Shown: one piece after another, positions 27 through 23,334 of the stretch | How positions within the stretch are numbered: the stretch's first letter is position 1 | Layout: the number at the start of each line of letters is the position of its first letter | Program-made: the position numbers and the translations under genes | Notes under the pieces: generated by a model | Told to the model about the DNA's origin: nothing | Database searches by the model: none | The model's input: the letters and a program-made list of their open reading frames with translations, nothing else | Source of the DNA: Catajapyx aquilonaris | Lineage: Eukaryota | DNA: 28,935 bases | Assembly (NCBI GenBank): GCA_000934665.2 | Contig: KZ538255.1 | Coordinates: forward strand, 62,001 to 90,935 | Direction of reading: 5' to 3'

Positions 27-889
27 TTATTGATCTCGTACGGTGTAATTGAATTCTGGTTCGGTTTTGGGTAGTACATCCGGTTCGGTTGTTAGTTGGA
101 CAGGGTGTTCATCCGCATTTGGCTGTTCGCTGTACAGTTCGCCATTGGAGCTGTCCGAGGAGTTCCTTCCTTTGAAAACGGGATCAAAGTGGCTTTTGAC
201 GTGACGCACAAAGTTGGAGATGATCCACCGCTTTCCATCCCGTTTGGTACTCGTCTGTAATGGACAGGAATGAGCATTTTGTACGGTACGTCCAACTGTG
301 CCGCACTTACTTGCGAAACCTGAGTACGTCCGTGACATATAGGACAGTTGACGTGCGCTGAAAGTTTAAGTTTCTGCCCGTCTGTTGTATCGGATGCTAT
401 GATTTCCACAGCCAGTTCCTCGCCCACACAGTCGGGCACGTACTTCATGAGCCATGCCGTAATTAGCTGCTGCACTTTACATCTCTCCTCATCCGGTCCG
501 ACAGACGCTGCTGCTGTATCCTCTGTGGTCTCCGCATGACTCCGCTTCTTCCGAGGCGGCTCAGCCCTCGTCTCCTTGAAGTACTCCAGCGGCTTCTGTG
601 TGCAGTGATCCTTGATGGCCTCCAGCAGATGCATGTGTCCGGGAAGGATCTGGAACTTGTGCGGCCTCTCGTGGAATATCCCAAATGCAATCTTCATGTC
701 CCCCTGCGGCACCAGGTCCTTCATCTCTGTCCGGGCGAACATGAGCATCTTCTGGACGTCCTGCGCGTCCATCAGCCTCACAGACACTGGGTTGTCGAAC
801 CCTGTGATGGACATCAGGTGCTTCAAGTACGGAGGCATCGTGATGTCCAGATCACGGCTTATTATGTCCCAAAAGGGGCTGTCCTCCAT
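27..889 (-). CDS. Uncharacterised ~268 aa protein with a C-terminal BED-like zinc finger (2 exons: 889-311, 254-27)
   Basis: A 56-nt GTAAGT...TACAG intron (310-255, phase 0) joins ORF 92..931 to ORF 27..338, giving CPICHGRTQVSQ|TSTKRDGKRWIISNFVRHVKSH (CxxC...W...NF.RH...H). A splice acceptor lies just upstream of the MEDSPFW ATG. Confidence 0.6.
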
Positions 890-899
890 TGCCTGGAAA

Positions 900-2370
900 T
901 GATTACAAAATTGACTACACTGTGAAATCATGGAGTAATCAAGGCATGTAAATCTTGCTAATTACGGAGTGTAATCTGGGGGGCATACGGCAAGGCCTGG
1001 AAGAGCGAAGGAGACTACTGGTGGGAGCCATCTCGAGTAAGCGATGAGTGTAATCATGATGATTACAGTTTAGATCAGTCAGATTACTCGTACCTGTTAC
1101 GTATGTGCCATCATCATTATGATTACACAGATTATTACTTGTCAACTAATGTATTCATCACGAAACTGTAATATCATCATGATTAGACTCAGACCACCGT
1201 GTCCTCACAGTCTCCATTGCCCTTCCAGGAGTTGTAATCATCCTCATGATTACACTGATTACTCTGTAACGATTGTAATCATCACGAAAAACTGTCATGA
1301 TTACCCTGATTTATGCTAGTTACGGCAAGGTTACGGTATGTGTCCTTCCAGGCTTTGTGACCATCTTGATGATGAAGGACATGATTATCGTAATCATCTT
1401 GATAACGTGCTAGTTATTGTAATCATCATGACTATTGAATTACTCGGCAATTATTGTAATCATCACCAAACTTCAATCATCATTAGGCTAATTACTCGGC
1501 ATTGCCAGTTACATGTACAAGTGCCCTCGTAGTGTCCTTCCAGCATCTTGATGATGATGGTCATGATTATTGAAATCATCATGATTACACAGATTACTCT
1601 GTAAGTAATCATGAAATTGTAATCATGATTTCAATGATTACTGGGTATTGCCAGTTAGTGTCCTCGTAGTGTCCTACTTCCAGGCTTTGTAATCATCATC
1701 ATGATTACACTGATTTTACTGGGTAATTAGTGTAATCACCACCAATATGTAATCCGTTAACGCTGGTTATGTGCAGCCTACAGCGTAACAGAGACTGTGA
1801 GGCCACTGCAGCGTCCTCGCAGTCTCCGTTGCCCTTCCAGGCTTTGCAATCATGATTACACTGATTACCACACATATGGTAATCACCACGAAACTGTAAT
1901 ATAATCATATGATTACACTGATTACTCGAAAATTATTGTAATCATTACAAATCGGTAATCATGATTACTCAGTTGTGCGTAGTAGTGTATTCACAGTCTG
2001 CGTTGTCCTCTCTCCTGTAAGCATCGTCATCATCATGGAAATCATGAAATAGTCATTACTCTGCAGTTGTAATCATCACCAGCAAACATGATGAAGCTGT
2101 AATCGTCATGAACTCATGATGATTGGGGGACTCACTCTTCCGATGGGCTTCCTCTCCTCTCCAGTTGTGGTCTCCTCCTCCTCCTCTTGCTTGCGGTGGT
2201 CTCCTCCTGTGCTCCAGGCCTAGCCGGACTCCCCCCTGGATTACACCCTGATTACCCCTCCTGATTACCCTCGTAATTAGCGCCATTTTGTGTCCCGCCC
2301 TCCCCCACCCACAGCAGATGGCAGCACCGCTGGGACCCAACATGGCAGCCACATGAGTAATCACTTGAAA
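900..2370. repeat. Degenerate tract of TGATTAC/GTAATCA motifs in both orientations
   Basis: Dozens of gattac and gtaatc words, often as gtaatcatgattac-type palindromes, plus recurring ccttccaggctttg segments; no credible ORF. Confidence 0.8.
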
Positions 2371-2453
2371 TCATCATCATCAGAGAGAGACAGGAAAGGG
2401 TGTGGACACTTCTCCTTATCCGGTTGAGAGGACACTTTGAGGACACTCCAACA

Positions 2454-3170
2454 ATGCCGGTGAGTGCAACGTTTTCATGGAGGGTACAGTATGAGTGTGT
2501 ACATTTGCACTGTGCTTGTTGCAGGCGTACCACTCCCAGTACCTGCACCCCCCTGCGCTGGTGGGGAACATCGCAATGCTGCCCCTCCGCACGCAGTTCA
2601 GGGGGCCAGCGCCAAAGGACAACGGGGACATGGACGTCATAGACGAGGCCATGAACTACTTCAAGGCTAACGTCTTCTTCCGCACTTACGAGATCAAGGT
2701 TGGTACGGCTCACCTTTGCGCCCTGCGCTGCTCTCACATGCGCACGTTATACGCAGAACGAAGCGGACCGTCTCCTGATCTACATCACGCTGTACATAAC
2801 GGAGTGCCTGAAGCGCCTGGTGAAGACGTCCAACCGCAACCAGGGAGGGCAGGAGATGTACAGCCTGGCCATATCCAAGTTCGACATCCCAGGGGAACAA
2901 GGGTTTCCGCTCAACTCCGTCTACGCCAAGCCTGCCACCACGCAAGAAGCAGGTACTTGATCGCTCCTCGCTTCCAATTCCAGAGGCGTAACGCTTCGGC
3001 TTCTATTTCCAGACCTGATGCGCCAGTACTTGCTCCAAGTGCGGCAGGAGACGGGGAACCGCGTGTGCGACAAGGTCTACCACACGGAGGACGGGAAGCC
3101 CTCCAAGTGGTGGCTCTGCTTTGCCAAGAAGCGCTTCATGGACAAGTCCCTCTCAGGACCTGGACAGTGA
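2454..3170 (+). CDS. ARPC3: Actin-related protein 2/3 complex subunit 3 (p21-Arc), 177 aa; exons 2454-2459, 2525-2698, 2757-2952, 3013-3170
   Basis: Spliced product MPAYHSQ...[17 protein letters not shown]...[33 protein letters not shown]...[18 protein letters not shown]...[23 protein letters not shown] matches ARPC3; all introns GT-AG with consistent phases. Confidence 0.97.
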
Positions 3171-3273
3171 TACCAGCCATTTGATAATAATTGTTATGTG
3201 CGTCTTGCTTAAATCGATTCAAGAGCGGAAACTGCCATTGTTACAAGTACGCCCCCCCAGTAAACAAGTTTAA

Positions 3274-3410
3274 GGCTGTTGCTTACATGTGAGCGACATA
3301 ATCAGCGATGAGCGATGAAGCCAATTGTTTGCTTCCAAAACGCGATTGTTACTTTCGCGCCAAACAATTGGTTTCATTGCTGATCATATCGTTCACATGT
3401 AAACACAGCC
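3274..3410. mobile_element. Hairpin MITE, PIF/Harbinger (Tourist)-like
   Basis: Ends ggctgttgcttacatgtgagcga / tcgttcacatgtaaacacagcc are imperfect inverted repeats; internal ccaattgtttg/caaacaattgg arms; flanked by TAA at 3271-3273 and 3411-3413. Confidence 0.7.
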
Positions 3411-3809
3411 TAAAAATCGCATATATCCGAGATACAAGAATGAAAGTTGTTGTCTGCATGCTTGTGGTAATTAAGAATAATAAATAATTACAGTTTTATT
3501 GTGGCTCGGTGTCGTCACTGAAATCGGTGACATTCAGGCAATTTTCCATAACAGTTTCTTTATTCTTTAATTGACAGGTATACAAAACGGAATTGAGACA
3601 TATTTACTTGTTACACATGCTTCAACGAATAGTTTAATTCACAAGTAGTGAGTTTGGTAAGCAGATGTAATTAATTATATCTGAATTCTCTAACAATACG
3701 TTACATAACCTTCCGTACATTGGCCGCAGCTTGATTATTCACAGTTGCGCTTTAAGTTCTCATGACCGTTCTCAACATGAACTTATCAAGCATGCGAGCC
3801 GCTTGACCC

Positions 3810-4622
3810 TTAGTGCATCTGCACCTTTGCCCTGATGGCAGCCCTTTTCCCCGTGACGGCCTTGAACCCTGGCTTGACCTGGGTCACCGTGTATTTGGAG
3901 AGGCAGTCCTCGCACTGTAAGAAGAGCAGACGTGCCTCCTTCTGCAGGACAGTGTTTGCCGAATGGCATGTGTGGCAGGTGACGTACTCCCGGATGTACC
4001 TCCGCAGCACCGTCTCCATCTGCATCTGCTGGAACCTCCCTCGCACCACCAGGCTGTTGTTGGAGTCCACCGATCCCGTGGTGCCCAGCTCGGACAGAAA
4101 GTAGTCCAGCAAATGCTTGGGCTTCCGATGAAGAGCCTTGCAAGCCTCCCAGAAGTTGACCATCGCCGTCTTCTTGCTGCCAATTCGGATGACCTATTGA
4201 GAAGGATGTGATTAGAGCGTACATTGGGGGGGGGGCAAGACAGGGAAACAAACCTGTGGCGGACGCATGACAAACTTCTGGTTGACTCCGGACTTGATAT
4301 TTGGGTTCTTCTCGCGCATTGTGTCGACTGCGCGCTTCAGTAGCTCATCGTATGTGTAGTCCTCGTTACCATCCCGGCACCAGCCTTCCGCCTCGTCTCC
4401 CTCCGTCTTGTAACCGGAATCCAAGAACAACTCGTCTGCACAGTTCCTCTTCCTCCGCTTCTTCTTGGATCCTAAAAAGTCCAAGTCCAAACTGGACAGC
4501 ACTGAAGCCACCTTGTCCACATCCGGCTCCACGTTCTCCTTTCCGCATGTCTCCACAGCCTTCCCCATGACACTCTTCTTCTTCTTCTTCTTAACCGACA
4601 TATCAAACGTAACTTCCTCCAT
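3810..4622 (-). CDS. EIF2S2: Translation initiation factor eIF2 beta subunit-like, ~250 aa, divergent; exons 4622-4254, 4193-3810
   Basis: Lysine boxes KKKKKK and [46 protein letters not shown]...LQCEDC C4 zinc finger, [10 protein letters not shown]; 60-nt GT-AG intron in phase 0. Confidence 0.92.
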
Positions 4623-5039
4623 ATCTGCAAGTACCTAAAAAGTACATGCAATTATTGACAGTTGTGATGCAACTTGTGAAACACACTGTTGGTGTTACAT
4701 CATTTTTGAATTATCCTTACTAATTGTTTTAATTTTTTTTTGGCTAGCATTCAAGTGTACACGGTACAACAGTATGTTCTGCACTCACCTGAAGTCTTGC
4801 TCTTGGGACACCCCCAAAAATTGCTTCAGAAGAATCTTCAGATCGCTTCAGACCTGTTTGAAAGTGTTCGATTTGCGCGCCTTTATAACTAACATTTTTA
4901 AAAATAAAGCATAAAAAGGTTAATAACCTCAATATATGTATGAATATAAGTAATGTAATTAACAAATTATACACACGTTATAATTAGCTAATTAGTTTGA
5001 GCAGGTTTTTTTTGCGGTTGGCACCATTGGCATGTAATC

Positions 5040-5052
5040 CAAGATGGCGCCG
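5040..5052 (+). promoter_or_regulatory. YY1/Pho-like motif in the divergent promoter region between eIF2-beta and the zinc-finger gene
   Basis: CAAGATGGCGCCG resembles the YY1 consensus AAGATGGCG; it lies between two head-to-head genes. A similar CGCCATTTTG lies at 2281-2290 upstream of ARPC3. Confidence 0.35.
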
Positions 5053-5297
5053 ATTCGTTCCAAATTTTTGTTCTGAAGCTGAAATTTCCAAGTTTCTGAC
5101 GGGTAATTAGACGTGTAATTAGACACCAGGATTACTAGAGTCGGATACAGGACATGCCAGCCATGCTCTGTACTGTCAGCGAGAGTAAGTGAGGCTCAGG
5201 TGGTTCGAAACATTTGTTGTTAACTCTATGGTTTTTCTCACACAGAAATGTTCTTCCAATGCAGCAGCTGGGGTTGACATACGTGGCCTGTAGGACC

Positions 5298-6408
5298 ATG
5301 GCATCGTTTGGTGTGAGGGTGAAGAAGGAGGAAGAACTGGAGGAAGATGGGAGCGTAACGGTGGAGGAGACATGGCAGTTGACCCTGAAGGAGGAGGCTC
5401 CGTCACGCTTCGTAGAAGACACGCTGCGGGAGATCAAGCAGGAGGGAGCGGAAGAGGAGGAGGAACAGATGGTGGTGGACACGTGTGGCGCGGTTGACGA
5501 CCAAGATGACCCATTGGGAGTCTTTTCCGGAATAATCAGTGGGGTACGTCCAGCTGAAGTATTGCAATGGTGATTAAAACAAGCTCAGTTTTTCTGATTC
5601 ACTATTTCAGATCGGGTCGGAGACCACTGAAGATGGAGTAGGAAAGAAGGGGAGCTGCCGTTATTGCCAGCAGAAATTCCGCAGTTCAAGTGACTTGAAA
5701 ACTCACATGCGAAGTCATGCTGGGAAAACAACATTTCAGTGTGATATGTGCCAGAAATACGTTCCTTGTCTAAGCAAGTTGAAACAGCACATGCGGATTC
5801 ATACGGGAGACAAGCCATTTAGTTGTGAGGTGTGCCTGAAAAAATTTCGCAGTTCAAGTAATTTGAATGTTCACATGCAAATTCATGCGGGAGTGAAACC
5901 AATTCAATGTGATGTGTGCCAGAAAAAATTGTATCACACGAGGAATTTGAAACGGCACATGCAAAGTCATGTGCGAGAAAAACCGTTTAATTGTGGTGTG
6001 TGCCTGAAAATATTTCGCAGTTCATGTACTTTGAAAGTTCACATGCAAATTCATACGGGAGACAGGCCGTTTAATTGTGACATGTGCCAGAAAAAATTTG
6101 GTGATTCGACAAACTTGAAATATCACATGCAAAGTCATACTGGAGAGAGACCGTTTCAATGTGAGGTGTGTAAGAAAACTTTTCCTCTTGCAAGGAATTT
6201 GAAATGACACATGCAAAGTCATAACGGAGACAGGCCATTTAAATGTGAGGTGTGCCAGAAAAAATTCGGTGAGTCAAGTAGTTTGAAATATCACATGCTA
6301 TGTCATACGGGAGAGAAACCGTTTCATTGTAACATGTGCCAGAAAAAATTTCGCTGTTCCAGTCATTTGACATTTCACATGCGAGTTCATGCAACGGAGC
6401 ATGTATAA
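5298..6408 (+). pseudogene. C2H2 zinc-finger gene (acidic N-terminus, 9 fingers) with an in-frame TGA at 6205-6207; truncated allele or pseudogene; exons 5298-5543, 5611-6408
   Basis: Phase-0 intron joins MASFGVRVKKEEEL... to IGSETTED...CRYCQQKF; nine CxxC-x12-HxxxH units with TGEKP-like linkers; finger 7 reads ARNLK*HMQSH and the same frame continues through two more fingers. Confidence 0.8.
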
Positions 6409-6551
6409 TTACTGTTGAGTCGTGCAATAAGAAATTAAGTAATTCACCATCATGAAATGTGTGAGATTGTGTGGAAAGGTTTGCTTTCATTTCACCAGTA
6501 CCATAATTATGTGAATGAACCATTTTTGAATGTTTCCGCGCCAGTGAGGAC

Positions 6552-7110
6552 ATGTATGGGTTGCACTATAAGGAGTTTGTGGGAGACGGCGACTCCAGTG
6601 TCCATAAAAACCTCCTGGAGCGTGTGCATTACGGCCATTTAATTACAAAAATTGAGTGTGCCAATCACTGCGTTCGGAATTACACCGGCATCTTCACAAA
6701 TTGGCTGCCAATACAAAGTTGGACTGCAAAGGCAGGAAGAGACTCCAAGGCCTCATACCACGCCTTACAGCTGCAGCACGTGGAGCCATCGCTAACTGTG
6801 CTGCGGCGGGGGAGAGCATTCAACAATTGCAGGAAGACTTGCTGTTGAATGGGCCCAGCCACGTTTTTGGCAACCACGCCAAATGCTGAGAGTTGTACTG
6901 CAAGAGGAAAGACTTGCTAGAGGAGAATCATGTACCGGAAGTGAAGACGGCCCGGAAGATCTGGCAGACATTGAGAAATCAACACGGCAACAAAGTCAGT
7001 TATGGGACACTCACCATCGTCCTTGCTTAACGGCGTCAAACTTCGGCGAGGTATGCAAAAGGAAGAAAGACAGACCTGGCGGACCACTCGCCAAGAGACT
7101 GCTGAGTTCG
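6552..7110 (+). mobile_element. Decayed DNA-transposon fragment: Kolobok/Mutator-like DDE transposase core followed by a YqaJ-like nuclease N-terminal motif
   Basis: YKEFVGDGDSSV and KIECANHCVRNY, a frameshift near 6685, then LLNGPSHVFGNHAKC*ELYC, then in another frame STRQQSQLW...LTASNFGEVCKRK. No TIRs identified. Confidence 0.7.
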
Positions 7111-7988
7111 TCCAAAGTTTTCATCCAAAGTAGAAAAATGTGAGCTTAGCGAGGGTTTTTCTAGTCAATATTTAATGACACATGCTTCGTATTCATGTAT
7201 TTTATTCATGCATCAAGACAGACTAATTTAAAAAAAGGTGAACATATGGACATGGACATGACGACAAAATAAATATTAATTAAATGCTTACGTCGGGCTT
7301 GACTACAACTCGTCACTGTCTAGGCAATTGCGGCTTGCACAGAGTTGGCCACACCAATTATTACGTGCAATCCCCAGATGTTGCGTACATTTCGACCAAA
7401 GTTGGAGCGTATTGCGTAAGAGTAGTTGCGTATAATATTTGCAGAAATTCATTCTTCAAGCAGTAGAGTGGTTAGCGACGTGTGTGTAAAAACTTTTTGG
7501 CAACTATTCCTGTATTATTAGGAACATTTTACATATATCGTAAAGTCATGGAACAAGTCATGAAGCATTGCTGACGTACTGGAAAAATATTAGTGGCAAC
7601 AATGATAGTTGCGTAAAAGTATGTGATTCTCTGCTGGTCATTTCCCGACAATACTACAATTATTCTAACCTCGAAAATGCACAGGAATATTCTGCGGAGA
7701 CAAAGCTCTTTGTGTACGCACTCCCATGAGCTAGTTCGTACCACCTAGCAGTACATCTCTCACAAGCCTACGTTGTATAGCACCTGCTGATGTATATCAC
7801 AGAGGAATTTTTTTAACAATTAATGAACAATAGCTCTCTCACACATATCTCTCGATGGATGCCTGCAAGCATCCTACGTGAAGGACAACTCTGTGCGAGC
7901 CAGCAACAAACAAGTTAAAACGATCCTTAGTCAGATCCCAAAATCACATGTTGTCATCAGCTGATCAGTCGGCTCAATCGGCCGATAG

Positions 7989-10900
7989 TCAGGTAGTGTC
8001 GCTGTGTATGCTGATGCTGGTCATGTCGTGGCAGAGACGAGACTCGCTCATGTCCTCGGCCAGGACCTCGATTATATCCAGGAGGAGGTCCCTGCTCAGC
8101 GTCTTTATCCTGGAGAGTCTGGCAACCTGGAACGGGACACGGTGGACGTTGAAAATGAGGTACGGATCAAATTGTGCCCCGATATTTACCTTTGGAAAGT
8201 GATGCACAATCAGGTTGAGGGCATACTTCTTCATGTCCTGCGCCTGGATTCGATCTGCAGCTTCCAATATTTGGATCACGTTCTCGGAGGTGACGTTCAT
8301 CTCGAGGTTTTGCTTGCAGAATGCCTGGAAGTATTCGATACGATATGCTCAATTCGTCAAAACACAAGTGCGGTACATCTGTTTAGGGTTCCTCGTAAAT
8401 GCAAAGCGCTCTCGGAAAGTTCCAAAAGCAACGTGAAATGGTTCTGTTCTGTTTTCTGGAGCGTGATGCTTTCATAATGAATGAGCCACAAACCTGCAGC
8501 CGATTGTTGGTGAAGCCATAAAAGAACGGGGCGCTGAACAAATAAAGGGAATCTTCTGGAGGCATGTTGACTTCTCCGTAGTAGATGTACCGCATCAACG
8601 AGTCGAAGCTCTGCCTTGAAGGGATCATCTCGCCAATCTGAATCTGAAACAATCGTGACGTTAATCATACAAAATTTAAGAGATAATCATCTCAAGTATT
8701 GTGCTACGACAACAGCTGACTGATGACGACGCGAGAAATTAAAGTGTCTAAATTACATGAACAATGTTGTCTTCCGGCATGAAGGAACGAAACATGGCTT
8801 CGAAGTAGGAGCACCTCGCAGCCAGTATCGCCTTATGGGCAGGAATCGGAACACCGTCCAACATTAGCGTGATGTCGCAGAAGTCACGTCCAGTCGACTT
8901 CAGAAACAGCTCCATGTCCTGTTCCAGCGACGTGCCTGCACCAAACATGATTATTCACCTGGAAGTACACATTCCGCCAAGTACTTACCGCATGAGTCGA
9001 ACTGCGGCTCAGTGATGACCCTGGAGTGTGGCATCTGCCTCCTCCGAATGATCTCCACCATCAAGGGCTGGTCTAACGTCTCAAACTCCTTGCTCATCAC
9101 AATCTGGGTGTAGTTGGTGTCTTTCACCACAAACTTCAGGCAGAATTCCTTCAGAAAGTAGAGCTTCAGGTGGGACGCATTGCAGAGGGCCTCCAGAACA
9201 TTGTGGTGGTTGATGGTGGCTTCGAGGTACTGGATGCACAGCTGCTCCAGGCGTCGCATGTGGAACTGGAAAATGGGCAACGTTCGTAGTTAAAAATTTC
9301 GTATGTTTCAATGGTCGATCTATTGTAGACCTTGCACATGTTGGAAAGCAAGAGTACCTGCACGGCCAATCTGTATACGTCCATCATTAGAAGCACGATC
9401 TTATTGCACGCAGGTTCCTTGCCTGAAAGTTCACGCTTGTTAATATTCATGCTCATGGCCTAATCGAGTCGGAACTGACTTTTTCCAGTGGGGTCAATCC
9501 TATCCGTGTAGATGTAGTTCAGCACCATCTGGAATGCTTCGGGTACAGCGTCCTTCAGATGCACCTGAAGCGCAGGAAGGTCCTTGCTGTTCAGACTGCT
9601 GTTGCTGCTGTTGCTGCTCTTCTCGGACGCTCTGTCTCTGGTCTCTTTGGCTTGTCGCACTTTGTTCCGCAGCCACTGCGATCTGGCCGAGACCAGTGCG
9701 ATGTGCGCACCCACTTGTACTTCCTCCGACCCAACAGTGAACTCCACGTCCTGCAACTGCTTGCTCTCCAGCAGCTTCCCGAAGTCCTCTTGCAGCGTGC
9801 ATTTCGGATAGCACGAAAACTGCGGGTTGAAATGGGTCAGTGAAGGGCCAAGTATGACAAAATAATGTGAACGCACCTGAAATCTGTACATGTCTCCGCT
9901 CCTGACGTTGTTGTCGACAGTTCCGCCAAAGACATACATTGCATCCCCAACAACGGCAGCTGCATGAAAGAGCCGCCCTGACGGCACCTGCGAGTCGGCA
10001 GCTGGCTGGACAATATACCACGTCTGGCTGTCCAGGTCGTAACAGTGAAGATCATTCGGAAGGGTGCTGTCTGCAGCTCCTCCAAACACGTACAGATGAC
10101 GGTCAAACGCCACCATGGTGTGGCCATAGCGGCGGGTCGGAGGTGGCGGTGCGCCACGGAGTATATGCTCAGTGGAAATACGTGTCCAGCTATGGCGTCG
10201 CATTATTAGTACAAGTTCAACGGTCCCGTAAAGTAAATGTCTTACAATTTCTCTCGGAAGTGGAACTGGAAGAGGCTGTTGGTGATCTTAGCCCCACTCT
10301 GCCCGCTGAACACGAACATAGAGTCACGAGCAACGGCCACTGGGAAGTTGCAACATGTGGGCGGACACTCGCCCCCTTGCGCCACCTCCTCCCAGCACTT
10401 ACTATCGCCCTGGAAAAAAACTCATAAGCACACCGGACAGATGGCCATAAACTGACGGCATACCTGAAGCGATATGGTCCACATGTCGTTCAATCGAGCA
10501 TTCCCATCGTATCCAGCAAAGATCCAGAGCTTCCCGTCGTACACAGCGCTGCCGTGAGCCGACCGTGGGACGGGCGTCCTACAAACATGATTATAGCAAC
10601 GGCAGTACCGCGAAACCGTAAAGTGCACTTACTTTCCAGCAAATTTCCACTCGGTCCATTGCCCCGTGTGAAACTTGTATTCGAAAAGGTCATTCTTGTT
10701 GGTCAGATTGGAGTTGGAATGGATGTCGCCCGTGTAGCCTCCAAACACAAACATGGAATTGTTGTGAACCTGCCGGGAAAATATCATCAGGCACCTGCTC
10801 TTTGGTTTACGTACTATAAAAATGTCTCACCACTGCGGAGTGGTGATATCGTGGCGCGGGAGGCGACCCGGTGGAGAACGCTCGCCCCCACGACTTCTCC

Positions 10901-11201
10901 TTGACGTCGAACCTCAGCAGGTCATTCAGCATGCTCTTCCCGTTGTCCCCTCCAAACACGTAAATGGCCTCCTTGTACGCAACCACCGTGTGCTTGCTCC
11001 GCCTGCAATTAATCCACACCTTACAACCTCCCCTAGTTACGACAACACGTGTCCTCACCTGGCCCCGACAAACTCGTCGCACTCCGGCATCATCCTCCAG
11101 CGATGCACAGTCTCGAACGGACCGAAATCTAAAGTGAGACACTCTGCAGACTCTGGCCACCCATGCTCAAAGTCCATCTGCAACGGCTGGGCCATGGCCA
11201 T
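7989..11201 (-). CDS. LZTR1: Leucine-zipper-like transcription regulator 1 (Kelch repeats plus two BTB-BACK), about 13 exons
   Basis: [16 protein letters not shown]...[126 protein letters not shown]; short GT-AG introns. Confidence 0.96.
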
Positions 11202-11843
11202 GGCTCATCCTGAAAAAGGATGCTCTTTAAGACGTGCCTGACAGGTGCTGTTTTCACCACTGATTAATTAATTAGTGAGCGGTGGCAGCTCGTTAAGTCT
11301 CCCATGGAGCATTCATAATGCGACATATTGGACACCCTCAGCGATGCTTTTGCAGTTGGTGCAGTTGTTCCTTTGTGATTAGTACACACTAATTAATTAA
11401 CTGTCATTTAATTAATTTAATTAATGAGTAATGTGACAGCACCATGCGGAACACTCTTGTGCGGAAGGTGCTGCGGCTTAATATTTCCTAATAAGCAGCA
11501 GTCACTACTGATCTAATTAGACGCACTGCATGCTCCTTACTCTATTAATTGGTTGATTAATTAACAAGAAATTAAGAGCAGAAGAGAGAGACATTCTCAC
11601 CCACACACTAATCAAGTAAAACAAACGATCGATCGAACACTGATGATGCTATCGAGCAACTATCGAGTATGGACTCAGCTGCTACGCGACATCGCCCCCC
11701 TTGTTTTTAAATCGGCTATAACAGCTACATGAATAAAGCAGCGATTTGTAGCAGTTCAAAGTTCAAAAATATGAATGTTGGGAAAGTTTATTGAAATTGT
11801 TTATTGTAATGGTCATATTGGGGGACCGCATGAAGTACAATTC

Positions 11844-12731
11844 CTAACATTGGGAGCGGTATTCGCAGATGACGCTGAAGAGTAAGTTGCAATTCCGGTT
11901 GTTCCAACGGTACTGGAGGCCTCGAGCCAAGGTGGCCACGCAGTGCTGGATCCCTCCAGGGGCGTTGGGCTCCCCATTGTTCCAGTAGAAGACTTTCATT
12001 GGGGAGAAGGAGGAGAGCCAGTACCAGTTGAACTCGTGGGTCGTGTCGTAACCTCCGATCCAACTCTGCCCTTGATGGTTGGCTGTCAATAAACGAAACA
12101 TGTTTACAGTGTCAGGATATGTAGTACAGAGCAGAAGACGTGAAGCCCAAAATGATGCACCCTGTACTTTTCCGAACATTATCGTGCACTTTCTGTGACA
12201 TCCTGTACTTTTCCCAGCATTATAGTGCAATTTTATTTGGGACACCCAGTCCAACTACAGGGTGACCCAAATGTCTGGACACATAATAAGGTGGCCAGTT
12301 GTGTACTCGTACAAAAATATTGGCGCAGCTAGCTGTGTGTATCACATGACATAAAGATGAAATTATCACTGCGACGTACCGTGCCTGGCAGGGCCACAAG
12401 ACAGTCATTGTGCATTGCTATACGTACTTGTCAGAAGGTACGAGTTGACTGCGGACAGTTCTTGGGTAGTCTCGAAGGCGACTAGGTCACCTCCGAGTGC
12501 CCTGCAGTACTCCGAACCCCGGTACCAGTTCATTCTCTTAACTCCGCTGAAATGGTAGCATCCCGTTGACAGTCCGATGTACTGGCTCTGGCACTGCGGG
12601 GCACCTTCTGTACTGTTGTCTGCTGACGGTACAGTTCAATTCAGTCGTACAGTATGCAACGCGCAGTATTCGAAATAATACGTACCTTCGCTACCTGCAA
12701 CTGCTGTGACCAGAAGCAGAAGTAGAAACAT
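11844..12731 (-). CDS. Secreted single-domain C-type lectin, EPN motif, 159 aa; exons 12731-12686, 12622-12428, 12082-11844
   Basis: Signal peptide MFLLLLLVTAVAG, GCYHFSG...NWYRGSEYC, SWIGG, WNNGEPN...HC...WNNRNC...VICE; phase-1 introns; TATAAAA on the minus strand near 12771-12777. Confidence 0.9.
12158..12352. repeat. Dispersed repeat in lectin intron 2, homologous to 22224-22425
   Basis: Shared caccctgtact...acattatcgtgcactttctgtgaca, gtccaactacagggtg and aaggtggccagttgtgtact segments in the same order. Confidence 0.8.
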
Positions 12732-13033
12732 TTTGTTGTACACACCAGACTACCGACAACTTATCATACCTTTTATACCAAGTTTAATACTGACTTGTAC
12801 TTATCAGTCTGTACACATGACCCAGAATAGCTCAAGTACCTGTCCACATATGCTACACCAACTGTTGGCAGTTGACTGATAAGATTTGTGTGTACAAGAT
12901 GGTCAGTTTTGACAATGAATCCGGTCCAGTCTGCCCGCGACAGGTATTGCGGTACTGTTGAACCTGTCCACTTGAGATGATAGTGAGCCGTGCTATAAAA
13001 GCAACGCCTTGGGCCGGATTTATGGTCAGCAAG

Positions 13034-13560
13034 ATGAAGGCACTAACCACTCTTCTGGTGGCTTCCATCGTCGCAGTGTCTGCTGTAGGATCATACACGT
13101 ACTGCCAGCGCCCATTCATCAACATCGGTTCAGGATGCTACCTGTTCAGCGGAGCAGCCAAGAAGTTCAGCTGGTTCGGTGGTGCAGAGTACTGTGCTGC
13201 ATACCAAGCAAACCTGTTGACCATCGACGACGCAGCTGAAAATGACAACATAAAGCAGTACCTCCGTGCATGTAAGTACACTTTTAAATTGAGGACGTAC
13301 CGGTGTGTTTCATACCCTATTTTACAGCTGGTTGGCAGACCACTAGCTTCATCGGTGGGTATGACCTAGGCCACGAGAGAGAGTGGCGTTGGTTGTCCTC
13401 CTTCGCTCAAATGGCCTTCACCGACTGGGCACCCAAACAGCCGGACAACCAGGGAGGTAACCAGCACTGTCTCTCCCTCAGTGGACAGTACGACTTCAAG
13501 TGGGAAGACTCCAGGTGCTTCGACACAAAGAGCGTCATCTGCAAGGCTATCCAATGTTAG
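13034..13560 (+). CDS. Secreted single-domain C-type lectin, QPD motif, 156 aa; exons 13034-13271, 13328-13560
   Basis: Signal peptide MKALTTLLVASIVAVSA, GCYLFSG...SWFGGAEYC, SFIGG, WAPKQPDN...HC...WEDSRC...VICK; TATAAAA near 12994; AATAAA at 13563. Confidence 0.92.
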
Positions 13561-13628
13561 GGAATAAAACCAGTTCTTTCCGTAACCATTGTTTATTTTT
13601 TCATCCCCCATACCATACTGGAGACAAT

Positions 13629-14901
13629 TTAGTAAGCATCGCAGTATGCAGCCTGAGTGTTGACTCCGCACCTGTTCTTGTTCCTCGCCATCTTAAGGTA
13701 ACCCTTGTCACCCCACCAGACACCCCAGCTGTTCTTTAGCAGCCAGAAGTCCTTCCCTTCTTCGTTCCCATAGCCAACGACAGTCACAGCATGGGTCGTG
13801 CTGTTAGGACAAGACACGTCATCGTACACGCCTGACTTGTAGTGCTGGAAGGACTGCATGTGTGCGTTCAGGGCGACTGCGATCGGACCATTGCTTCCAA
13901 CCTGAAGCCTCATTTGCTCTTCGTCTCTTTCGATCACCCCAGGGTTTGATATTTGGGCTCCTACATACTTACGTTGGTACACGCAATATTGTTGCTGCAA
14001 TAAGACGATCAGAGAATGTGTCGTAATGTCAGTTATTGTGTTGTACCTTTCCGATATAAGGATAGGTGTCCCAGGTCATCAAGCTGTACTCCAGAAGGTA
14101 CTTGCTCATTACTCGGTATGGCCATCCTCCGTTGCATCCACCTTCCTTCATATCGCAGTCCACTATTTGCTGAGCGCTAACAAAGAGCAACATATCAGAT
14201 CACACAATACCTGCCGTACCGGTACACTATGGCAAACCTTAGATCCTGCGGAGCTCGGTTCCTGCTGATGGCCTGTCGACTCTCAATTGTTGCTGCTGTC
14301 GCAAAGGCATAGCAGGACCCGCATTGTTCCTGGTTCTTCACTCTGGTCACAACACCTTTGGTCCTCCAGTCAATCTGAATTCACCAATTAATTATTTGCT
14401 AATAAATTATAATTACACAGTTGCTCGTAGCGGATACTTACACTGTCTGAAGCAGGAGTTGTGTACTTCAATTCCGTTGCTTTCAGTTTCATAACGTCAT
14501 GGTTGAAGCATGTGGTTGTCTCACGGAATTCTTGGTTGGTCTGTAGGTGAAAATAATTAGTGACGAATGACATGAGCAACACACCGGACTTACCAGGTCA
14601 GTGAATGGTCCAAGACCCAGTGTGAAGGAGTGTAGTCCACGAGCCGCTTCCAGGTTGTGTTTGGAGATGTAAGCCAGGTTGTCCTCCCAAATCAGACGAC
14701 GCTTCGCCTCATCCTCCAATGACTGGTACTCCCTCTTGTACACAATCTGAAATGCAACAAGTCGTACAACAAAAGGTACGGTCGGTATGGCAGTATCATT
14801 ACCTTGTAAGCTTCCCAATCAGAGTTGTACACCGAGTGTGCCTTCCGAATTGAGACGCAACTGGCCGAAGCCACCAGCAGGAACAGAATTACGGTGCTCA
14901 T
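13629..14901 (-). CDS. Cathepsin L-like papain-family cysteine protease, 327 aa; exons 14901-14803, 14746-14594, 14540-14442, 14374-14238, 14176-14047, 13994-13629
   Basis: Signal peptide, ERFNIN-like propeptide ([21 protein letters not shown]), [42 protein letters not shown]; catalytic Cys/His/Asn present; frames join. Confidence 0.93.
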
Positions 14902-17558: not shown

Positions 17559-20500
17559 TCACACGCATTTTCTGTCGAAGAAGTGGTCAAATCCTTTCAG
17601 GATCTTCTGCAGTGCTTTTCCGGGACAGCAGGTGTCGGACAGTTGTCTGTGTCCGGCCAACTTGTACTTGGGATGCAGGTAGCCCTTGTCGAGACCGCAA
17701 GCCAAGAGCGACTTCAGAGAATCCAGCTGCTCCTCGGGAGGCGGCTCACCTACGGGAAGGGTCATTTGTTAGCATCAAATAATAATAATAATCATTGTGA
17801 ACGTTCAGAACACTACGACAGACAATTATGTACACATATAGTGCAAGGAGATTTCCGTCCGATTGAAATCTGAAATGAATTTGCACTCCCTGCACCTTCT
17901 GGTTATCGGCCGCAATTTTGCAGAATTCCGTACGGTAGCTAGTCTGCAGATATTAAGCCATATTACGCACAATATGTACACTTTACAAACATTACCTACA
18001 GTAACGGCACATTTAAAAAAATGCATGTGATGCTGTGAATGTGAGTGACATGTAGAAGACACACCGAACAGAGTGACGCCAACTAGACAAACACTAGGCA
18101 CACCAATACAGTAGTGTAATAGGAGAAGAGCAAGGTGACAAGTACTGTGTTTGTGATGTGTGTAAGCTGCGGAGATGACTTTCACATTTATAAGAGAAAA
18201 TACATTGAGGAAACTGAGAGAACGATCTGACGTCATCAAGGTTTCCATTGAAAATAACCTCACAGAACAACAGTGTCAACAAAAAGCAACAATGGAACAA
18301 ACGATGACGTCAGATCGTTCTCTCGTTTTCCGAACATGATGTCAATTTATTTCTAGAGTAATGAGAGAAAGCCGTTTGCATTAACGGCAGATATTCTGAA
18401 ATTCCAATGAACTCAGCTCTTTTGCGATGTTACCAACACAGCATTTCAGTTGAGACGTTAACAAATTTTGTACACAGTGCTAAAGAGTGCTGTAAAAGTG
18501 TGCTTGTGAAAAGTGTCAGTTGTGAAGCATACACAGGTATACACAGACGCAGTTAGAGAGAGGAAAAAAAGCCTGTGAGACAGCAATGATTAGGAGTCAC
18601 ACCGAAAACAAACAACCACAACCAACGAGCAACACTTCTCCTCAGTACGGCAACAATGCGGTTAACACCACACCACAAAGCCTTTTTTTTTTCCTTCCAG
18701 AAGTTATACAGAGCACGACTACGTGACGAAGTATGCTCCCAATTGCTTCTGCTGCAGGGACGGCCAGCCTTTGGATCAAATCGTCCAGCTTATTTCACGT
18801 TGGCCGTCCCTGCACAGATGCGATTCAATTGAAAGCGTACAGTACAAGGGTGAACACACAGTTGCTGTATTTTTCCACTCATGTTACATACTCTTGAAGT
18901 TGCCTGTGAGCGCCACACCAAGAGATTTGACGTTGTAATTGCTGACATGCGATCCTCTGGTATCCCATCCCCTGCCTTCAAAGATGGTTCCATTTCCACC
19001 GATCACAAAGCTGCAAAGTCCCACGCTTTGCAGTATGCAATACTACACAGGTTCCAACCATTACGTGTTGTTTGGTATTGTGAATATGTTATGCACTTAT
19101 CAACAGAGGTTTTTTTTTTAAAAAAAGATGATATATGAAATTGACTTTCAGTGCATTATTACAAGATGGTTGAATATGACTACACAAAGTTATTAAGTCC
19201 CCATGAATAAGATGGCAGAATAGAACCATACTTGTATCCGATGTCGCACCATCTCTTGGTCCTCATGTGGTACCGCTGAATATCCTGTATCTTTTGATGG
19301 CAGGTGTCATTGGAGTAGCAGTTCTTTCCATTCGTGTGATGGATCACCACGAACTCCCACGGCAGCAGTCTGGCAGGCTTGCCGACAGGGTTGGATGCAT
19401 TCCAGTCATCACGAGGAACAACTGGTGGACACTCTGAAGGCGAACAAGAAGTTTAATTGGAGGTAAATGTTGAAATCCGACATCAACGAGGATTTTTTTT
19501 TCTGACTTAAGCCGCGTTTACATACGAGCAATTTATCAGCGATGTTGCTAAAGTAACAATAGTGATAACTACATTTTTGCCCTAAATAATATTGGTCTCA
19601 TTGCCCAGCGATGTGCAACGTCGCTGATAAATCGCCGGAATATAAACGCAGCTTATGTTTGAGACAGACACAATTTTTTACTTTAAAAGTCCGCATTTGG
19701 CAACTTTATAGTTCTCAAGCAGCTGTTAAACGAGGTTAGGAAATAAGAGAGTAATTATCATTCACATGTACACATTTATTTTCAGATAAATATTACAAGA
19801 CTAGAAATGCACCCTGATCATGATTACTCAGAGAGTTGTCTCGGCATAGTTTCGTCGACTGGTTGGATCACCCAAGGTAAGGACTACTCTTGACCTGATA
19901 CGACATTTTAAAAGTCTGTGCTCTGGCAACGGCTGACCAATAGCATCTCGAGGTGATCTGGCGCCACGCTTTGACCTTCAGACTGCAGCACATTTTGGTA
20001 AGCCGGAAAGGAATGTTCTACGTCGCAAGCGACCACTGGTGCAAACACATATCTCGACAGAGCATCTGGCTTCACTTCTTGCAGTGCTTCCGATGCATAG
20101 TCACTCTGACCGTTCAGAACCCGACTGATCCCCTGCAGCGTTTCTAACCCTGGGTTGCTGCTCACTAAACTGGAGAACATTTCCATGACTTTACCACCAG
20201 TTGATTCGGGTGCATTGCTGATGGCCGTTTTGATAGATTCAAGAGTCACCATTGCTTCACTGAGGGTGAGTCCTGCGCCTTTCATTTTAGACTTTGCGGT
20301 TGACAAAACGGAAAAGTGATCCTTGATGTACGCTAAGTTTTCTAGTATGGAGCTGCTTACAAAGGCTTCTTTCACTTTGGTCACACACGCCGTATCACTT
20401 GTTAATGAGTCGACAACCTTCAAAAGAAACAATTCAGAGGTATTAATTATTTCTGCAAAGTTACCGCATTTACATGATATCTACCGCTCTGATTGCCGTA

Positions 20501-22124
20501 AAATTCTTCTCCATGAAAAGTGCAGCATCAATCCATGATTTATCCGGCGCTGGTGGCAGCGGCAAGTCCTCATTGGCCTCCCTATATTTCTGTATCCGAA
20601 CAGGTGACCCTGCAAACGCAAGGTGGGCCGCCTCCAACAGTTGGTCAACTTGTGTGAACTCTTCCTTCACGCACTCAATCAGTCCCTCCAGCATCGTAAA
20701 CAAACATGTGCAGTGGGTGACATTTGGGTAGAAGATCTGAAGGGAAGTCGCAGCTTCAAGCATGTAACTCGCTGAGTCGGTCAGGAGCAGCAGCAGACGA
20801 GATTCGTGCCCACCGTACGGCCAGAGAAGTTCTGTTGGAAGACATGCGTTAGGATAAAGTACGACACTGTTTACGGTATGGAACGTACTCAGCGAGTCGT
20901 TAATGAAGCGAGCGATTGTAATGTGCGTGGTTTTTCTCATCACTCTGACACCGATCAGATGCGGCGTTGATGGTCCGTCAGCTTCCATCTTTCCGACCAC
21001 CATGTTGGCTATACATCTGCATCCAACCTGGTCGACGGTCACGCCAACGGAAGCCCAAATGTACGAATCACCCAGGCTGTCCCGTACCAACTCGATCGCC
21101 TTCGGATGAAAGAAATCATGTGAATGTCCGTATTTCAATGTGAACGTTAGGACCGTACCATTTCGTAGCATCTGGGTACGTAATTTTGCACCAGTGTGAC
21201 CTGATCCGGTATGGTTCTCTGCATGTATTTCTCCAGGAAGCTTCTAAACGTCTGGTTGTCCAGTACGCTCCATGGCGTACCTGAGGCGGACAGAACGTAG
21301 GCCAGCTCCCCTTCAAAGCTGTCTTCCGGATCGCTCTGGCTGCACGTCGGCTTGGTCTCAACCATACACATTTGGTTGCTAAACGTGTTCTGCAAGTTCC
21401 TCTGGTGCATACCGGTCATATTGTGCTGGACCAGCTGGAATTTCCGTTCGCATGGAATCTGCCGGATGAAACCATGTTAATGAACATGTGAAACGACAGC
21501 GTACAGTTGAGGGCGTACCAGTTTGCAGCAAGGGCTGCAGTAGACGGTGACTCCGTCCGTGGTGTAGCTCGGATACTGCGAGACCCACTGGTGCAACAGT
21601 TGGCGAAGGGGTGTCCGCACCTTGGGCATTATCCCGGCAAACCCAAACTCTCTCTCTCTCTACTCCTCTTTATATTCCTATGCCCCTGAAGAGCAATTTT
21701 CTCTTTAAAAAAGATTTCTTCATCCGCAGTCCGCACTGCACATGACAGCGCTCCAGTACTGAGTGCTGCATTACGCTTAATTATTTTTATACCAAAATGT
21801 ACTACATGCTGTACTGAACCTTCTGCCCTACATACCTTGCCTACAACCTACACGTAATTGCACAGTAAATAATTATTGAGGAAAAAAAATATATTCATGC
21901 AGCAAAAGGCGTCCATGTTGCTCCTGAGGGGGTGCCAACAGCACGGTTGGCAATCCTGATTACAAGCGCGAAGTTTCAAAATAATTTAATTGCAAATTCA
22001 CGAATATTTTGCTACGGGCTATAGACCTTCCTATTAAGCAGTCGATAGACTTACCGACAGCAGCCATGATCGGCGCAGGTGCCAGGATCGCCAACAAAAG
22101 GCAGCTCATCCAATAATAAGCCAT
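17559..22124 (-). CDS. Short secreted peptidoglycan recognition protein, amidase type (PGRP-A), 193 aa; exons 22124-22055, 19433-19232, 19010-18892, 17749-17559
   Basis: Signal exon [68 protein letters not shown], TCCPG; intron phases 1,2,1 give one open frame. Mostly missed by the ORF track. Confidence 0.9.
18209..18331. repeat. Inverted repeat containing TGACGTCA in PGRP-A intron 3
   Basis: gagagaacgatctgacgtcatc pairs perfectly with gatgacgtcagatcgttctctc (22 bp), with weaker pairing extending on both sides. Confidence 0.75.
19510..19653. mobile_element. Hairpin MITE related to the 3274-3410 element
   Basis: agccgcgtttacat / atataaacgcagct termini; internal atttatcagcgatgttgc / gcaacgtcgctgataaat arms; TA-containing flanks. 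Confidence 0.65.
19908..21629 (-). CDS. hAT-transposase-derived (CGGBP1/DUF659-like) protein, 492 aa, nested in PGRP-A intron 1; exons 21629-21519, 21458-21159, 21099-20889, 20831-20485, 20417-19908
   Basis: MPKVR...YTTDGVTVYCSPCCKLIPCERKFQLVQHNMTGMH zinc finger, FRSFLEKY...IPD, LLWP, LLLLTDSASYM, FYPNVTHCTC, PLPP, APVVACDVEHSF; four short GT-AG introns with consistent phases and no stop. Confidence 0.85.
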
Positions 22125-22223
22125 GGCTGCAAATCAATATTATCAAGAGGGCTCATGAAACACACATAAATTCACACATGCTACACACTCTACTGTTCCA
22201 ACATTTTTGGTGGCAAAATTGTA

Positions 22224-22457
22224 TGTGACACCCTGTACTCTTCTGACATTATCGTGCACTTTCTGTGACACCCTGTACTTTTTTCCAACATTTCTGTGAC
22301 ACCCTGTACTTTATACCAACATTTTTGTGACACCCTGTCCAACTACAGGGTGTGTGACATAAGGTGGCCAGTTGTGTACTATAACGCACAAAAAGATTGT
22401 CGCACTGTGCGTATCACATATAACTATACATGGATATAGTGTGCGACAATCTTTTTG
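22224..22457. repeat. Composite repeat: tandem gtgacaccctgtac units, back-to-back CACCCTG/TACAGGGTG ends and a 17-bp hairpin
   Basis: Four gtgacaccctgt units; caaaaagattgtcgcac (22389-22405) is the exact reverse complement of 22441-22457; homologous to 12158-12352 and 24522-24585. Confidence 0.8.
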
Positions 22458-22961
22458 CTTGTCATTGCACTTATATGGGCTCAGCTTGTAGTGCCAACAC
22501 CTGTTTTTGTTTACACACGTGACTACGTGTATAACAATGAACTTGCCTGGCTGTGTTGCCAAGTGTCCACCACACTCTAAATTGGACGGTCAGGCCACAG
22601 AGGACCTGCTGGGTTGGATGGACAACTATCACCTGGGACTAGTACAGGTCTATAAGGTAGGGGGTATGGAGGAGGTTGGGGGGGGGGTAAAAGAGGGTTT
22701 TGTGGATCGATAAATACCCCCGACGTGCAATCCCAGTATCCCCACGCCCTTTTCCTGGGACTATAACAGCGACGATTCTAGTCCATAGCTCTAGGAGGGC
22801 ATGTAATAATAGACTTGTGGATGAGTCAGAGAGCCAACAACTTGGCAGTTTATGTATATTTTGTTTGGCAACATTGCAAGAAAGGGTTATATTTATGATA
22901 TACGCCAACCCTGGGGGTTAACCACTCCACTTTTATAGCAAGTAATCGCAGTAATATTATA

Positions 22962-23226
22962 CAGGGTGTAAATCCTAAGCGTGTCACCAGAAAAGGTGGT
23001 GGTAGAGGGCGCAGGTGTGAGCATTTTTGCATAAGGAACTAGGGGTCGGAAACGCACCCTCACCGAGTTACGCCCCTTTCAAGTTTGCGGCAGGCAGTGT
23101 GCACGCGGCGGAGTGACTCGGTGAGGGTGCGTTTCCGACCCCTAGTTCCTTATGCAAAAATGCTCACACCTGCGCCCTCTACCACCATCTTTTCTGGTGA
23201 CACGCACGCTTAGGATTTACATCCTG
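22962..23226. mobile_element. Foldback MITE, Tc1/mariner-type ends, ~110 bp TIRs
   Basis: TA|cagggtgtaaatcctaagcgtg...caccctcaccgagt is mirrored by actcggtgagggtg...cgcttaggatttacatcctg|TA with few mismatches and one 4-nt indel; TA on both sides. Confidence 0.9.
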
Positions 23227-23334
23227 TATTGCTCTTACGGTACTTACACGTTGTGCCCATTGCCGAAGGCTGGGCACGTCTCGTTTCCATGCCGGGACAA
23301 GCGAAGTTACGTTTCCAAGTCGGGAATATAATTG

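Follow-up and report, generated by a model that had tools for sequence, protein, structure and literature searches.

The hAT-derived gene and its transcript

The window analysed here, a 28,935-nt stretch of the Catajapyx aquilonaris genome (GenBank assembly GCA_000934665.2, contig KZ538255.1, positions 62,001 to 90,935 of the forward strand), contains a gene whose descent from a DUF659-type hAT transposase is well supported and which, by prediction, would be nested in a PGRP gene, PGRP-A. The locus is probably that of an immobilised, domesticated hAT transposase acting as a DNA-binding protein. In window coordinates, the hAT-derived gene occupies positions 21629-19908 of the minus strand, where it can be read on the sequence as five coding exons (21629-21519, 21458-21159, 21099-20889, 20831-20485 and 20417-19908) that run from an ATG at 21629 to a stop codon at 19910-19908 and amount to 1479 nt, that is 492 codons plus stop. 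The four coding introns are 60, 59, 57 and 67 nt long, and all of them follow the GT..AG pattern. A preliminary description of this DNA had proposed a 492-residue frame with four host-sized introns; its coordinates match the sequence, the five-exon gene is intact, and a fifth intron, in the 5' untranslated region (5'UTR), is added to it here.

Of five sequencing runs, X1-X4 are DNA runs, possibly of the source sample, and X5, whose library kind is unrecorded, comes from another sample and study; the X5 contigs were compared with the window over 18000-23000. One X5 contig of 1337 nt removes exactly the four predicted coding introns plus the 5'UTR intron, at which the contig of record 19 links 21685 to 21836 and continues for about 100 nt beyond the joint. 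A second X5 contig (record 18) spans 19812-20220, and the X5 contig pieces have no differences from the window. The intron joints of the gene are missing from the DNA runs X1 and X4, and because the X5 contigs are spliced at joints that these runs lack, X5 is taken to be cDNA. The hAT-derived gene is a transcribed, correctly spliced gene, and it combines several of the marks by which a domesticated gene would be recognised, namely an intact frame of 492 codons, host-type introns and a spliced contig across five introns. X5 contigs are missing over 22008-22341, where the first exon of PGRP-A is predicted, and over 19435-19811 outside a miniature inverted-repeat transposable element (MITE), and neither blank carries a conclusion.

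From its 5' end, the transcript begins with a non-coding first exon at 21836-21934, whose 5' end is open as the X5 contig ends here, followed by the 5'UTR intron (21686-21835; 150 nt, GTATGT..CAG), the joint of which is present in X5 and missing from X1 and X4. The start-codon exon (21519-21685) supplies residues 1-37, among which C31 and C34 are zinc ligands, and coding intron 1 (21459-21518; 60 nt, GTACG..CAG), with an X5 joint at 21458/21519, interrupts the zinc finger, so that the ligands H49 and H55 are encoded by the following exon (21159-21458; residues 38-137), together with the helical DNA-binding region. Coding intron 2 (21100-21158; 59 nt, X5 joint) precedes the exon that opens the RNase H-like core (20889-21099), in which, by the family alignment, the codon at 21045-21043 specifies G156. 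Coding intron 3 (20832-20888; 57 nt, phase 1) is in frame; it is taken as an intron because the relatives lack its 19 residues and the phmmer matches split there, and it too is joined across in X5. When read through, it gave the sole stretch of low predicted local distance difference test (pLDDT) score, residues 74-89, in a predicted fold of exons 3-4. The next exon (20485-20831) carries D226, C250-L-F-T253 and a gap of four residues between D304 and K305 (about 20544-20539), and is separated by coding intron 4 (20418-20484; 67 nt, GTAGAT..AAG, X5 joint) from the last exon (19812-20417), which encodes the all-alpha insertion domain and E457 within DVEHSF and continues, in the X5 contig of record 18, as 3'UTR to at least 19812. 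A candidate poly(A) signal, AATAAA, is predicted from the sequence at 19775-19780, outside the X5 contigs. The RNA-supported 5'UTR exon at 21836-21934 also holds an upstream open reading frame of 22 codons on the minus strand, which finishes ahead of the splice donor.

Family and fold

A phmmer search with the translation of exons 3-4 (P0001) against 1.84 billion representative proteins returned 939 matches with an E of 1e-3 or lower, 292 of which reach 1e-10 or lower. The best relatives are 42-47% identical to the query and many are 480-500 aa long; the named members of the family come from mites, nematodes, cockroaches, flies, wasps, flukes, aphids and beetles. The Pfam domain DUF659 was found in all 20 relatives scanned (E<=0.01); the portion of PMC3985635 cited here treats it as a domain of hAT transposases in which the RNase H-like active site is conserved in its residues. 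Two of the 20 matched Dimer_Tnp_hAT (PF05699), for which the relative P0006, at 25.3 bits, exceeds the cut-off of 21.4, and weak matches to zf-BED or to the hAT dimerisation domain occur in a few relatives. A protein-atlas feature search with the window piece gave a score of 0.92 for clusters of DUF659 and ZBED1 RNase-like type and is used as a lead only, and a word-based search among longer proteins gave a single match, a cockroach REV1 fusion. The Pfam matches of the window's exon translations, RSF (E 2.4e-4, below the cut-off) and densovirus VP1 (E 0.047), are at chance level and were set aside.

Descent from a hAT transposase is well supported by the fold of P0006, which shares 42% identity with the window piece (E 1.2e-31) and whose AlphaFold model (pLDDT 91.3) has the Hermes transposase as its top Foldseek match (E 1.2e-11). 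VIA-align superposed this model on Hermes with a Z of 24.9 and a root-mean-square deviation of 3.3 A over 347 residues (106-481 of the model, 135-605 of the chain), against a Z of 12.7 for the next unrelated family, that of the P element transposase. The RNase H-like core broken by an all-alpha insertion, by which a hAT transposase is recognised, is present in P0006. A family profile run against PDB sequences retrieved no Hermes or CGGBP chain, its best match being the U1-C zinc finger (E 0.026), so the link to Hermes comes from the fold comparison. Exons 3-4 of the window protein fold at pLDDT 87.4 with strands and helices in the same order as in P0006, in a prediction driven by the alignment. 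The CGGBP/DUF659 type assigned in the preliminary description stands in part: the DUF659-type hAT ancestry is borne out by the domain in 20 of 20 relatives and by the superposition of P0006 on Hermes, and the CGGBP label was not recovered, the name being absent from the best 120 of 218 short matches.

Catalytic residues and zinc finger

The CxxH motif after strand 5 is a defining feature of hATs, and at this place the window protein reads C250-L-F-T253. The histidine of the motif is present in 132 of 147 relatives, as counted in an alignment of 151 relatives to the family hidden Markov model in which only sequences with a residue in the column were considered, and is replaced by T253 in the window protein. 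The remaining catalytic positions were placed by means of Hermes, for which D180, D248, R318, W319 and E572 are listed as essential in the portion of PMC6027215 cited here. In P0006, strand 1 carries D148, strand 4 is immediately followed by D216, and E448 belongs to the helix past the all-alpha insertion, an arrangement usual for DDE enzymes; the D148-D216 spacing of 68 is that of D180-D248 in Hermes. The first catalytic D is conserved in 126 of 128 relatives and is G156 in the window protein; the second (142/150) is kept as D226, and the catalytic E (69/73) as E457. Both members of the R-W pair, conserved in 111 of 119 and 110 of 118 relatives respectively, are deleted. The window protein lacks the first D, the R and the W, three of the five Hermes-essential residues expected in an active transposase, and the triad reads G156, D226, E457 where the alignment was checked for an intact DDE.

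Comparison with 42 full-length relatives places these losses within changed motifs: SIDETTD of the family becomes SVGVTVD, CLAH becomes CLFT, DVERSF becomes DVEHSF, and PVLTRWGTW is reduced to PD----KSW, with four residues missing. The zinc ligands C31, C34, H49 and H55 are all kept, and two positions ahead of the first zinc Cys the protein has V where the family consensus has L. The degraded motifs and intact zinc finger of the preliminary description (SVGVTVD, CLFT, DKSW and VEHSF) thus hold against full-length relatives, and from the sequence we infer a loss of catalysis in the window protein. After the conserved F that closes E-R-S-F-S, the window protein and the relatives P0023, P0103 and P0128 have a proline where other relatives have S, by convergence or by common descent.

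Ends, copies and divergence

The region between the PGRP exons gave no candidates for terminal inverted repeats (TIRs) of 11 nt, with up to 2 mismatches, accompanied by an 8-bp target-site duplication (TSD); a scan of the intron flanks for YARNG-type ends with a TSD gave none either, and a repeat search around the hAT-derived gene found no suitable TIR pair. The absence of TIRs noted in the preliminary description agrees with these two scans and the repeat search of the intron flanks, all of low power. A single contig carries the gene in each of two DNA runs, one of 4385 nt (18303-22687) in X1 and one of 4682 nt in X4. Depth over 19670-21506 equals that of the contig itself and of the flanks, at 33.9 in X1 and 20 in X4, so no other contig at least 90% alike is present on the gene. 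Other fragments of the family were not found in the window. One locus from a metagenome scan (L001), with 31% identity over 54 residues and without flanking TIRs or a matching open reading frame (ORF), was rejected as spurious.

Neither phmmer nor the metagenome scan found an orthologue or any relative above 47% identity. Of the 77 columns with a conservation of 80% or more among the 42 full-length relatives, the window protein matches 50, the second lowest share among 43 rows in a family with a median of about 0.91. No end branch of the tree is longer than that of the window protein, at 1.02 where the median is 0.64. A neutral simulation limited to substitutions, which counted neither indels nor the ten splice dinucleotides, left the frame open after about 27% amino-acid change in 0.23% of 3000 runs, which is indirect evidence of some constraint on the frame. 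Some of the differences may have been inherited from another subfamily.

The PGRP-A gene

PGRP-A lies on the same strand as the hAT-derived gene. Its predicted first exon (22055-22124) would encode a hydrophobic leader of 23 residues that resembles a signal peptide, and end at the donor CG|GTAAGT in phase 1. Exon 2 (19232-19433), with the start of the Amidase_2/PGRP domain (weak, E 0.062), and exon 3 (18890-19010; Amidase_2 E 1.4e-5, with 25.9 bits where the cut-off is 26) are joined in the X5 contig of record 17, which covers 19434-19232, continues at 19010 after a 221-nt intron and ends at the predicted acceptor at 19434. A last exon is placed near 17741-17580. The PGRP domain is recognised by Amidase_2 on 18884-19042 and weakly on 19180-19452; an exon of the neighbouring PGRP-B scores 29.4 bits, and the exons of PGRP-A are 39-57% identical to those of PGRP-B, exon 2 being the 39% case. 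No X5 contig links the hAT-derived gene to PGRP exons, which says nothing either way on chimeric transcripts.

The two tandem PGRPs differ sharply in the size of their introns. By eye, those of the upstream copy (24100-24930) are about 50-110 nt long. PGRP-A (17580-22124) has introns of 221 nt and about 1.1 kb, and a third of 2.6 kb if its first exon is correctly predicted. The two large introns of PGRP-A each contain repeats.

Repeats and other features of the window

The window is a gene-dense region of animal type with similarly short introns, in which genes for ARPC3, an eIF2-beta-type protein, a C2H2 zinc-finger protein, a Kelch/BTB protein, C-type lectins, cathepsin L and two PGRPs were recognised. 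The best matches of a cathepsin L exon, from a scale insect, rotifers and an abalone, reach just 44-60% identity. A repeat search found four small palindromic MITE-like repeats (18209-18331, 19505-19658, 22376-22470 and 22959-23229), over which the summed depth in X1 ranges from 283 to 14,550, against 33.9 in unique sequence. The repeat at 19505-19658, whose 44-nt arms are 82% complementary and whose summed depth is 283, lies in the same intron as the hAT-derived gene, between it and PGRP exon 2. A shorter look-alike of the 22376-22470 unit was seen by eye near 24520-24590, in an intron of the second PGRP.

The motif CAGGGTGT has 9 matches in the window where 1.05 are expected, a count of at least 9 being reached in 0 of 100 shuffles. 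Five copies stand at 22228-22353, 100-230 nt upstream of the predicted PGRP-A start, four of them direct and about 31-40 nt apart and one inverted. The palindromic element at 22959-23229 also begins with a CAGGGTGT terminus and has TA on both flanks, a sequence context that suggests a MITE of Tc1/mariner type rather than a hAT element. The five copies may form a promoter array derived from MITE ends; their interpretation as a hAT end was rejected, since the 22959-23229 element is TA-flanked and without an 8-bp duplication.

Two genes for tRNA-Lys(CTT) are found 370 nt apart on the minus strand, at 25400-25478 and 25773-25846, upstream of the second PGRP; one of them is 79 nt long, about 5 nt longer than its twin, with the anticodon at position 40. 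An ORF fragment on the plus strand at 6519-6845, which matches the Mutator-like transposase PF20700 (E 3e-12), adjoins a C2H2 zinc-finger ORF at 5578-6204, and a degenerate satellite of 'GATTAC' type with a period of about 22 nt occupies 23341-23589 and about 23720-24090, between the PGRP genes.

Interpretation of the locus

In the reading favoured here, a single-copy descendant of a DUF659-type hAT transposon would have become an immobile, intron-bearing and transcribed host gene, the product of which would retain an N-terminal C2H2/BED-like zinc finger, a helical DNA-binding region and an RNase H-like core. With the first D, the R-W pair and the CxxH histidine lost, we propose that this protein binds DNA, probably self-associates, and neither cuts nor joins it; DNA binding and selection for a host function are both what we infer. 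The preliminary description had called it a catalytically dead, retained DNA-binding protein. The loss of three of the five essential residues, the kept zinc ligands and the transcript all speak for this, and the word 'retained' goes further than the data, which do not establish it.

Several observations weigh against domestication or against the loss of activity. The best relative is only 47% identical, so that no ratio of non-synonymous to synonymous substitutions is available and purifying selection is not established. The neutral simulation takes the extra changes of the window protein as neutral and gene-wide, and it ignores inheritance from a possible active subfamily. The N-terminal region keeps 11 of its 14 conserved columns and the core 30 of 43; the C-terminal third keeps 9 of 20, fewer than in any other of the 43 rows. 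Such divergence across the whole protein would also fit a decaying copy. The scans for TIRs and TSDs are weak because shuffled controls also yield about zero (0/30; mean 0.275 for the YARNG scan), and copies less than 90% alike fall outside the comparison of X1 and X4 contigs. The exon translations of the window, scanned piecewise rather than spliced, match no Pfam hAT family at E<=1, and the pLDDT of 87.4 for exons 3-4 stems from the aligned relatives and is no sign of protein stability. The Hermes residues were mapped through topology, order and spacing rather than by superposing individual residues, and D160, D226 and E457 are still present, so the protein may keep some residual activity.

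It is somewhat unlikely that the gene is instead an unbroken relic, a dead transposon copy that is still transcribed, has no host function and owes its open frame to luck or recent inactivation. Such a relic would account for the loss of conserved columns in all three regions, most of all in the C-terminal third, for the longest end branch in the tree and for the lack of known orthologues, and a handful of mutations would suffice for the catalytic losses. It is harder to reconcile with a frame of 492 codons and ten splice-site dinucleotides that are all intact, with introns that are spliced out in RNA, and with the rarity of open frames under neutral drift, even with indels uncounted; moreover, if the copy had died recently in an active family, some sister copies should be expected, and none at least 90% alike is found in X1 or X4. 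The view that the element is still mobile, as a non-autonomous copy or one with short or degenerate ends that is moved in trans by an active relative elsewhere, is very improbable. The family does look active elsewhere, arthropods and nematodes having both fragments and full-length copies in their hundreds, and TIR scans have low power; the gene nevertheless stands on a single contig at flank depth in both X1 and X4, in a window that holds no other fragment of the family, and no TIR or TSD was found between the PGRP exons. The immobilised, domesticated transposase agrees best with the intact, spliced and single-copy gene.

A further question concerns the location of the hAT-derived gene. If the predicted first exon of PGRP-A is right, the hAT-derived gene would be nested on the sense strand inside PGRP-A intron 1, with its own first known exon at most 120 nt downstream of 22124-22055, so that the PGRP pre-mRNA would pass six exons and a poly(A) signal. 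The contrary view, that this prediction is wrong and that the gene stands between two tandem PGRPs, affects its location only and is rather unlikely. The exon at 22124-22055 is without RNA support, and PGRP-B, by eye, has a first intron of about 48 nt and a leader that is not hydrophobic. Set against this, of the 55 ATG-to-GT phase-1 candidates in 19434-22700, the four on 22124/22109 alone are strongly hydrophobic (2.69, the next being 1.48) and are followed by the donor CG|GTAAGT; none of the 55 lies between 19434 and 19908, where a PGRP-A first exon would have contradicted the nesting claimed in the preliminary description; the upstream in-frame extension of exon 2 contains a stop and no ATG; and the X5 contig of the PGRP ends at the acceptor. 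That the disabled full-length protein is a sequence-specific regulator tied to PGRP-A, with transcription of one gene gating the other, is quite improbable.

Comparison with known systems

The family shares its fold with Hermes (PDB 6dwz, 4d1q and 2bw3), in which the same order of D, D, CxxH, R-W, all-alpha insertion and E is found. It differs in sequence, P0006 being just 12-14% identical to Hermes, and in length, the family proteins, at about 490 aa, falling short of the aligned Hermes chains. In the window protein the first D is missing as well, together with the R-W pair, and its gene has no detectable TIR or TSD. Compared with the DUF659 (PF04937) hATs, a domain that its relatives match in 20 of 20 cases, the window protein breaks the active-site pattern called conserved in the cited portion of PMC3985635.

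Several catalytic positions are also replaced in four full-length proteins of 488-491 aa annotated as host genes, P0103 and P0156 from Musca autumnalis and M. domestica and P0023 and P0157 from Polistes; the Musca and Polistes proteins each share a 90%-identity cluster with a second species of their own genus. The replacements differ from site to site, with D216N, H243D and W297T in P0103 and D148N, D216N, H243N and E448T in P0023, and these proteins are about 33-38% identical to the window protein. In a bold reading, the window protein would not be a private domestication; it would belong with proteins of flies and wasps to an ancient clade of DUF659 proteins that are full-length and 'dead'. 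The tree groups it weakly with the Musca and Polistes proteins (Shimodaira-Hasegawa-like approximate likelihood-ratio test 83, branch 0.044); a common origin is not claimed, given this weak grouping and possible long-branch attraction. The look-alike 'dead' relatives that carry host-gene annotations in Musca and Polistes are flagged here, and P0085 and P0128 are further full-length family members with several catalytic positions replaced.

The closest parallel in kind is offered by domesticated hATs. According to the sections of Yellan, Yang and Hughes 2021 (PMC8097297) cited here, dozens of independent hAT domestications have involved a zf-BED and a Hermes-type DNA-binding region, and the domesticated hATs of CGGBP type, which belong mainly to the hAT-19 subclass, are often intron-bearing, non-syntenic and lineage-restricted. 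The features given there for CGGBP proteins, zf-BED-like ligands and prolines, are found in the window protein as the Cys and His ligands C31, C34, H49 and H55 and the family-conserved P99 and P121, and the event would be of the same kind. If the domestication is real, it would add one more documented hAT transposase turned host gene, and no new category relative to those sections. It would be unusual in its sense-strand position inside an innate-immunity gene, and would provide a concrete test case for the role of a full-length, catalytically disabled hAT protein, as the window gene differs from the CGGBP-type hATs described there in retaining its full length of about 490 aa, which is unusual when compared with retention of the DNA-binding head alone.

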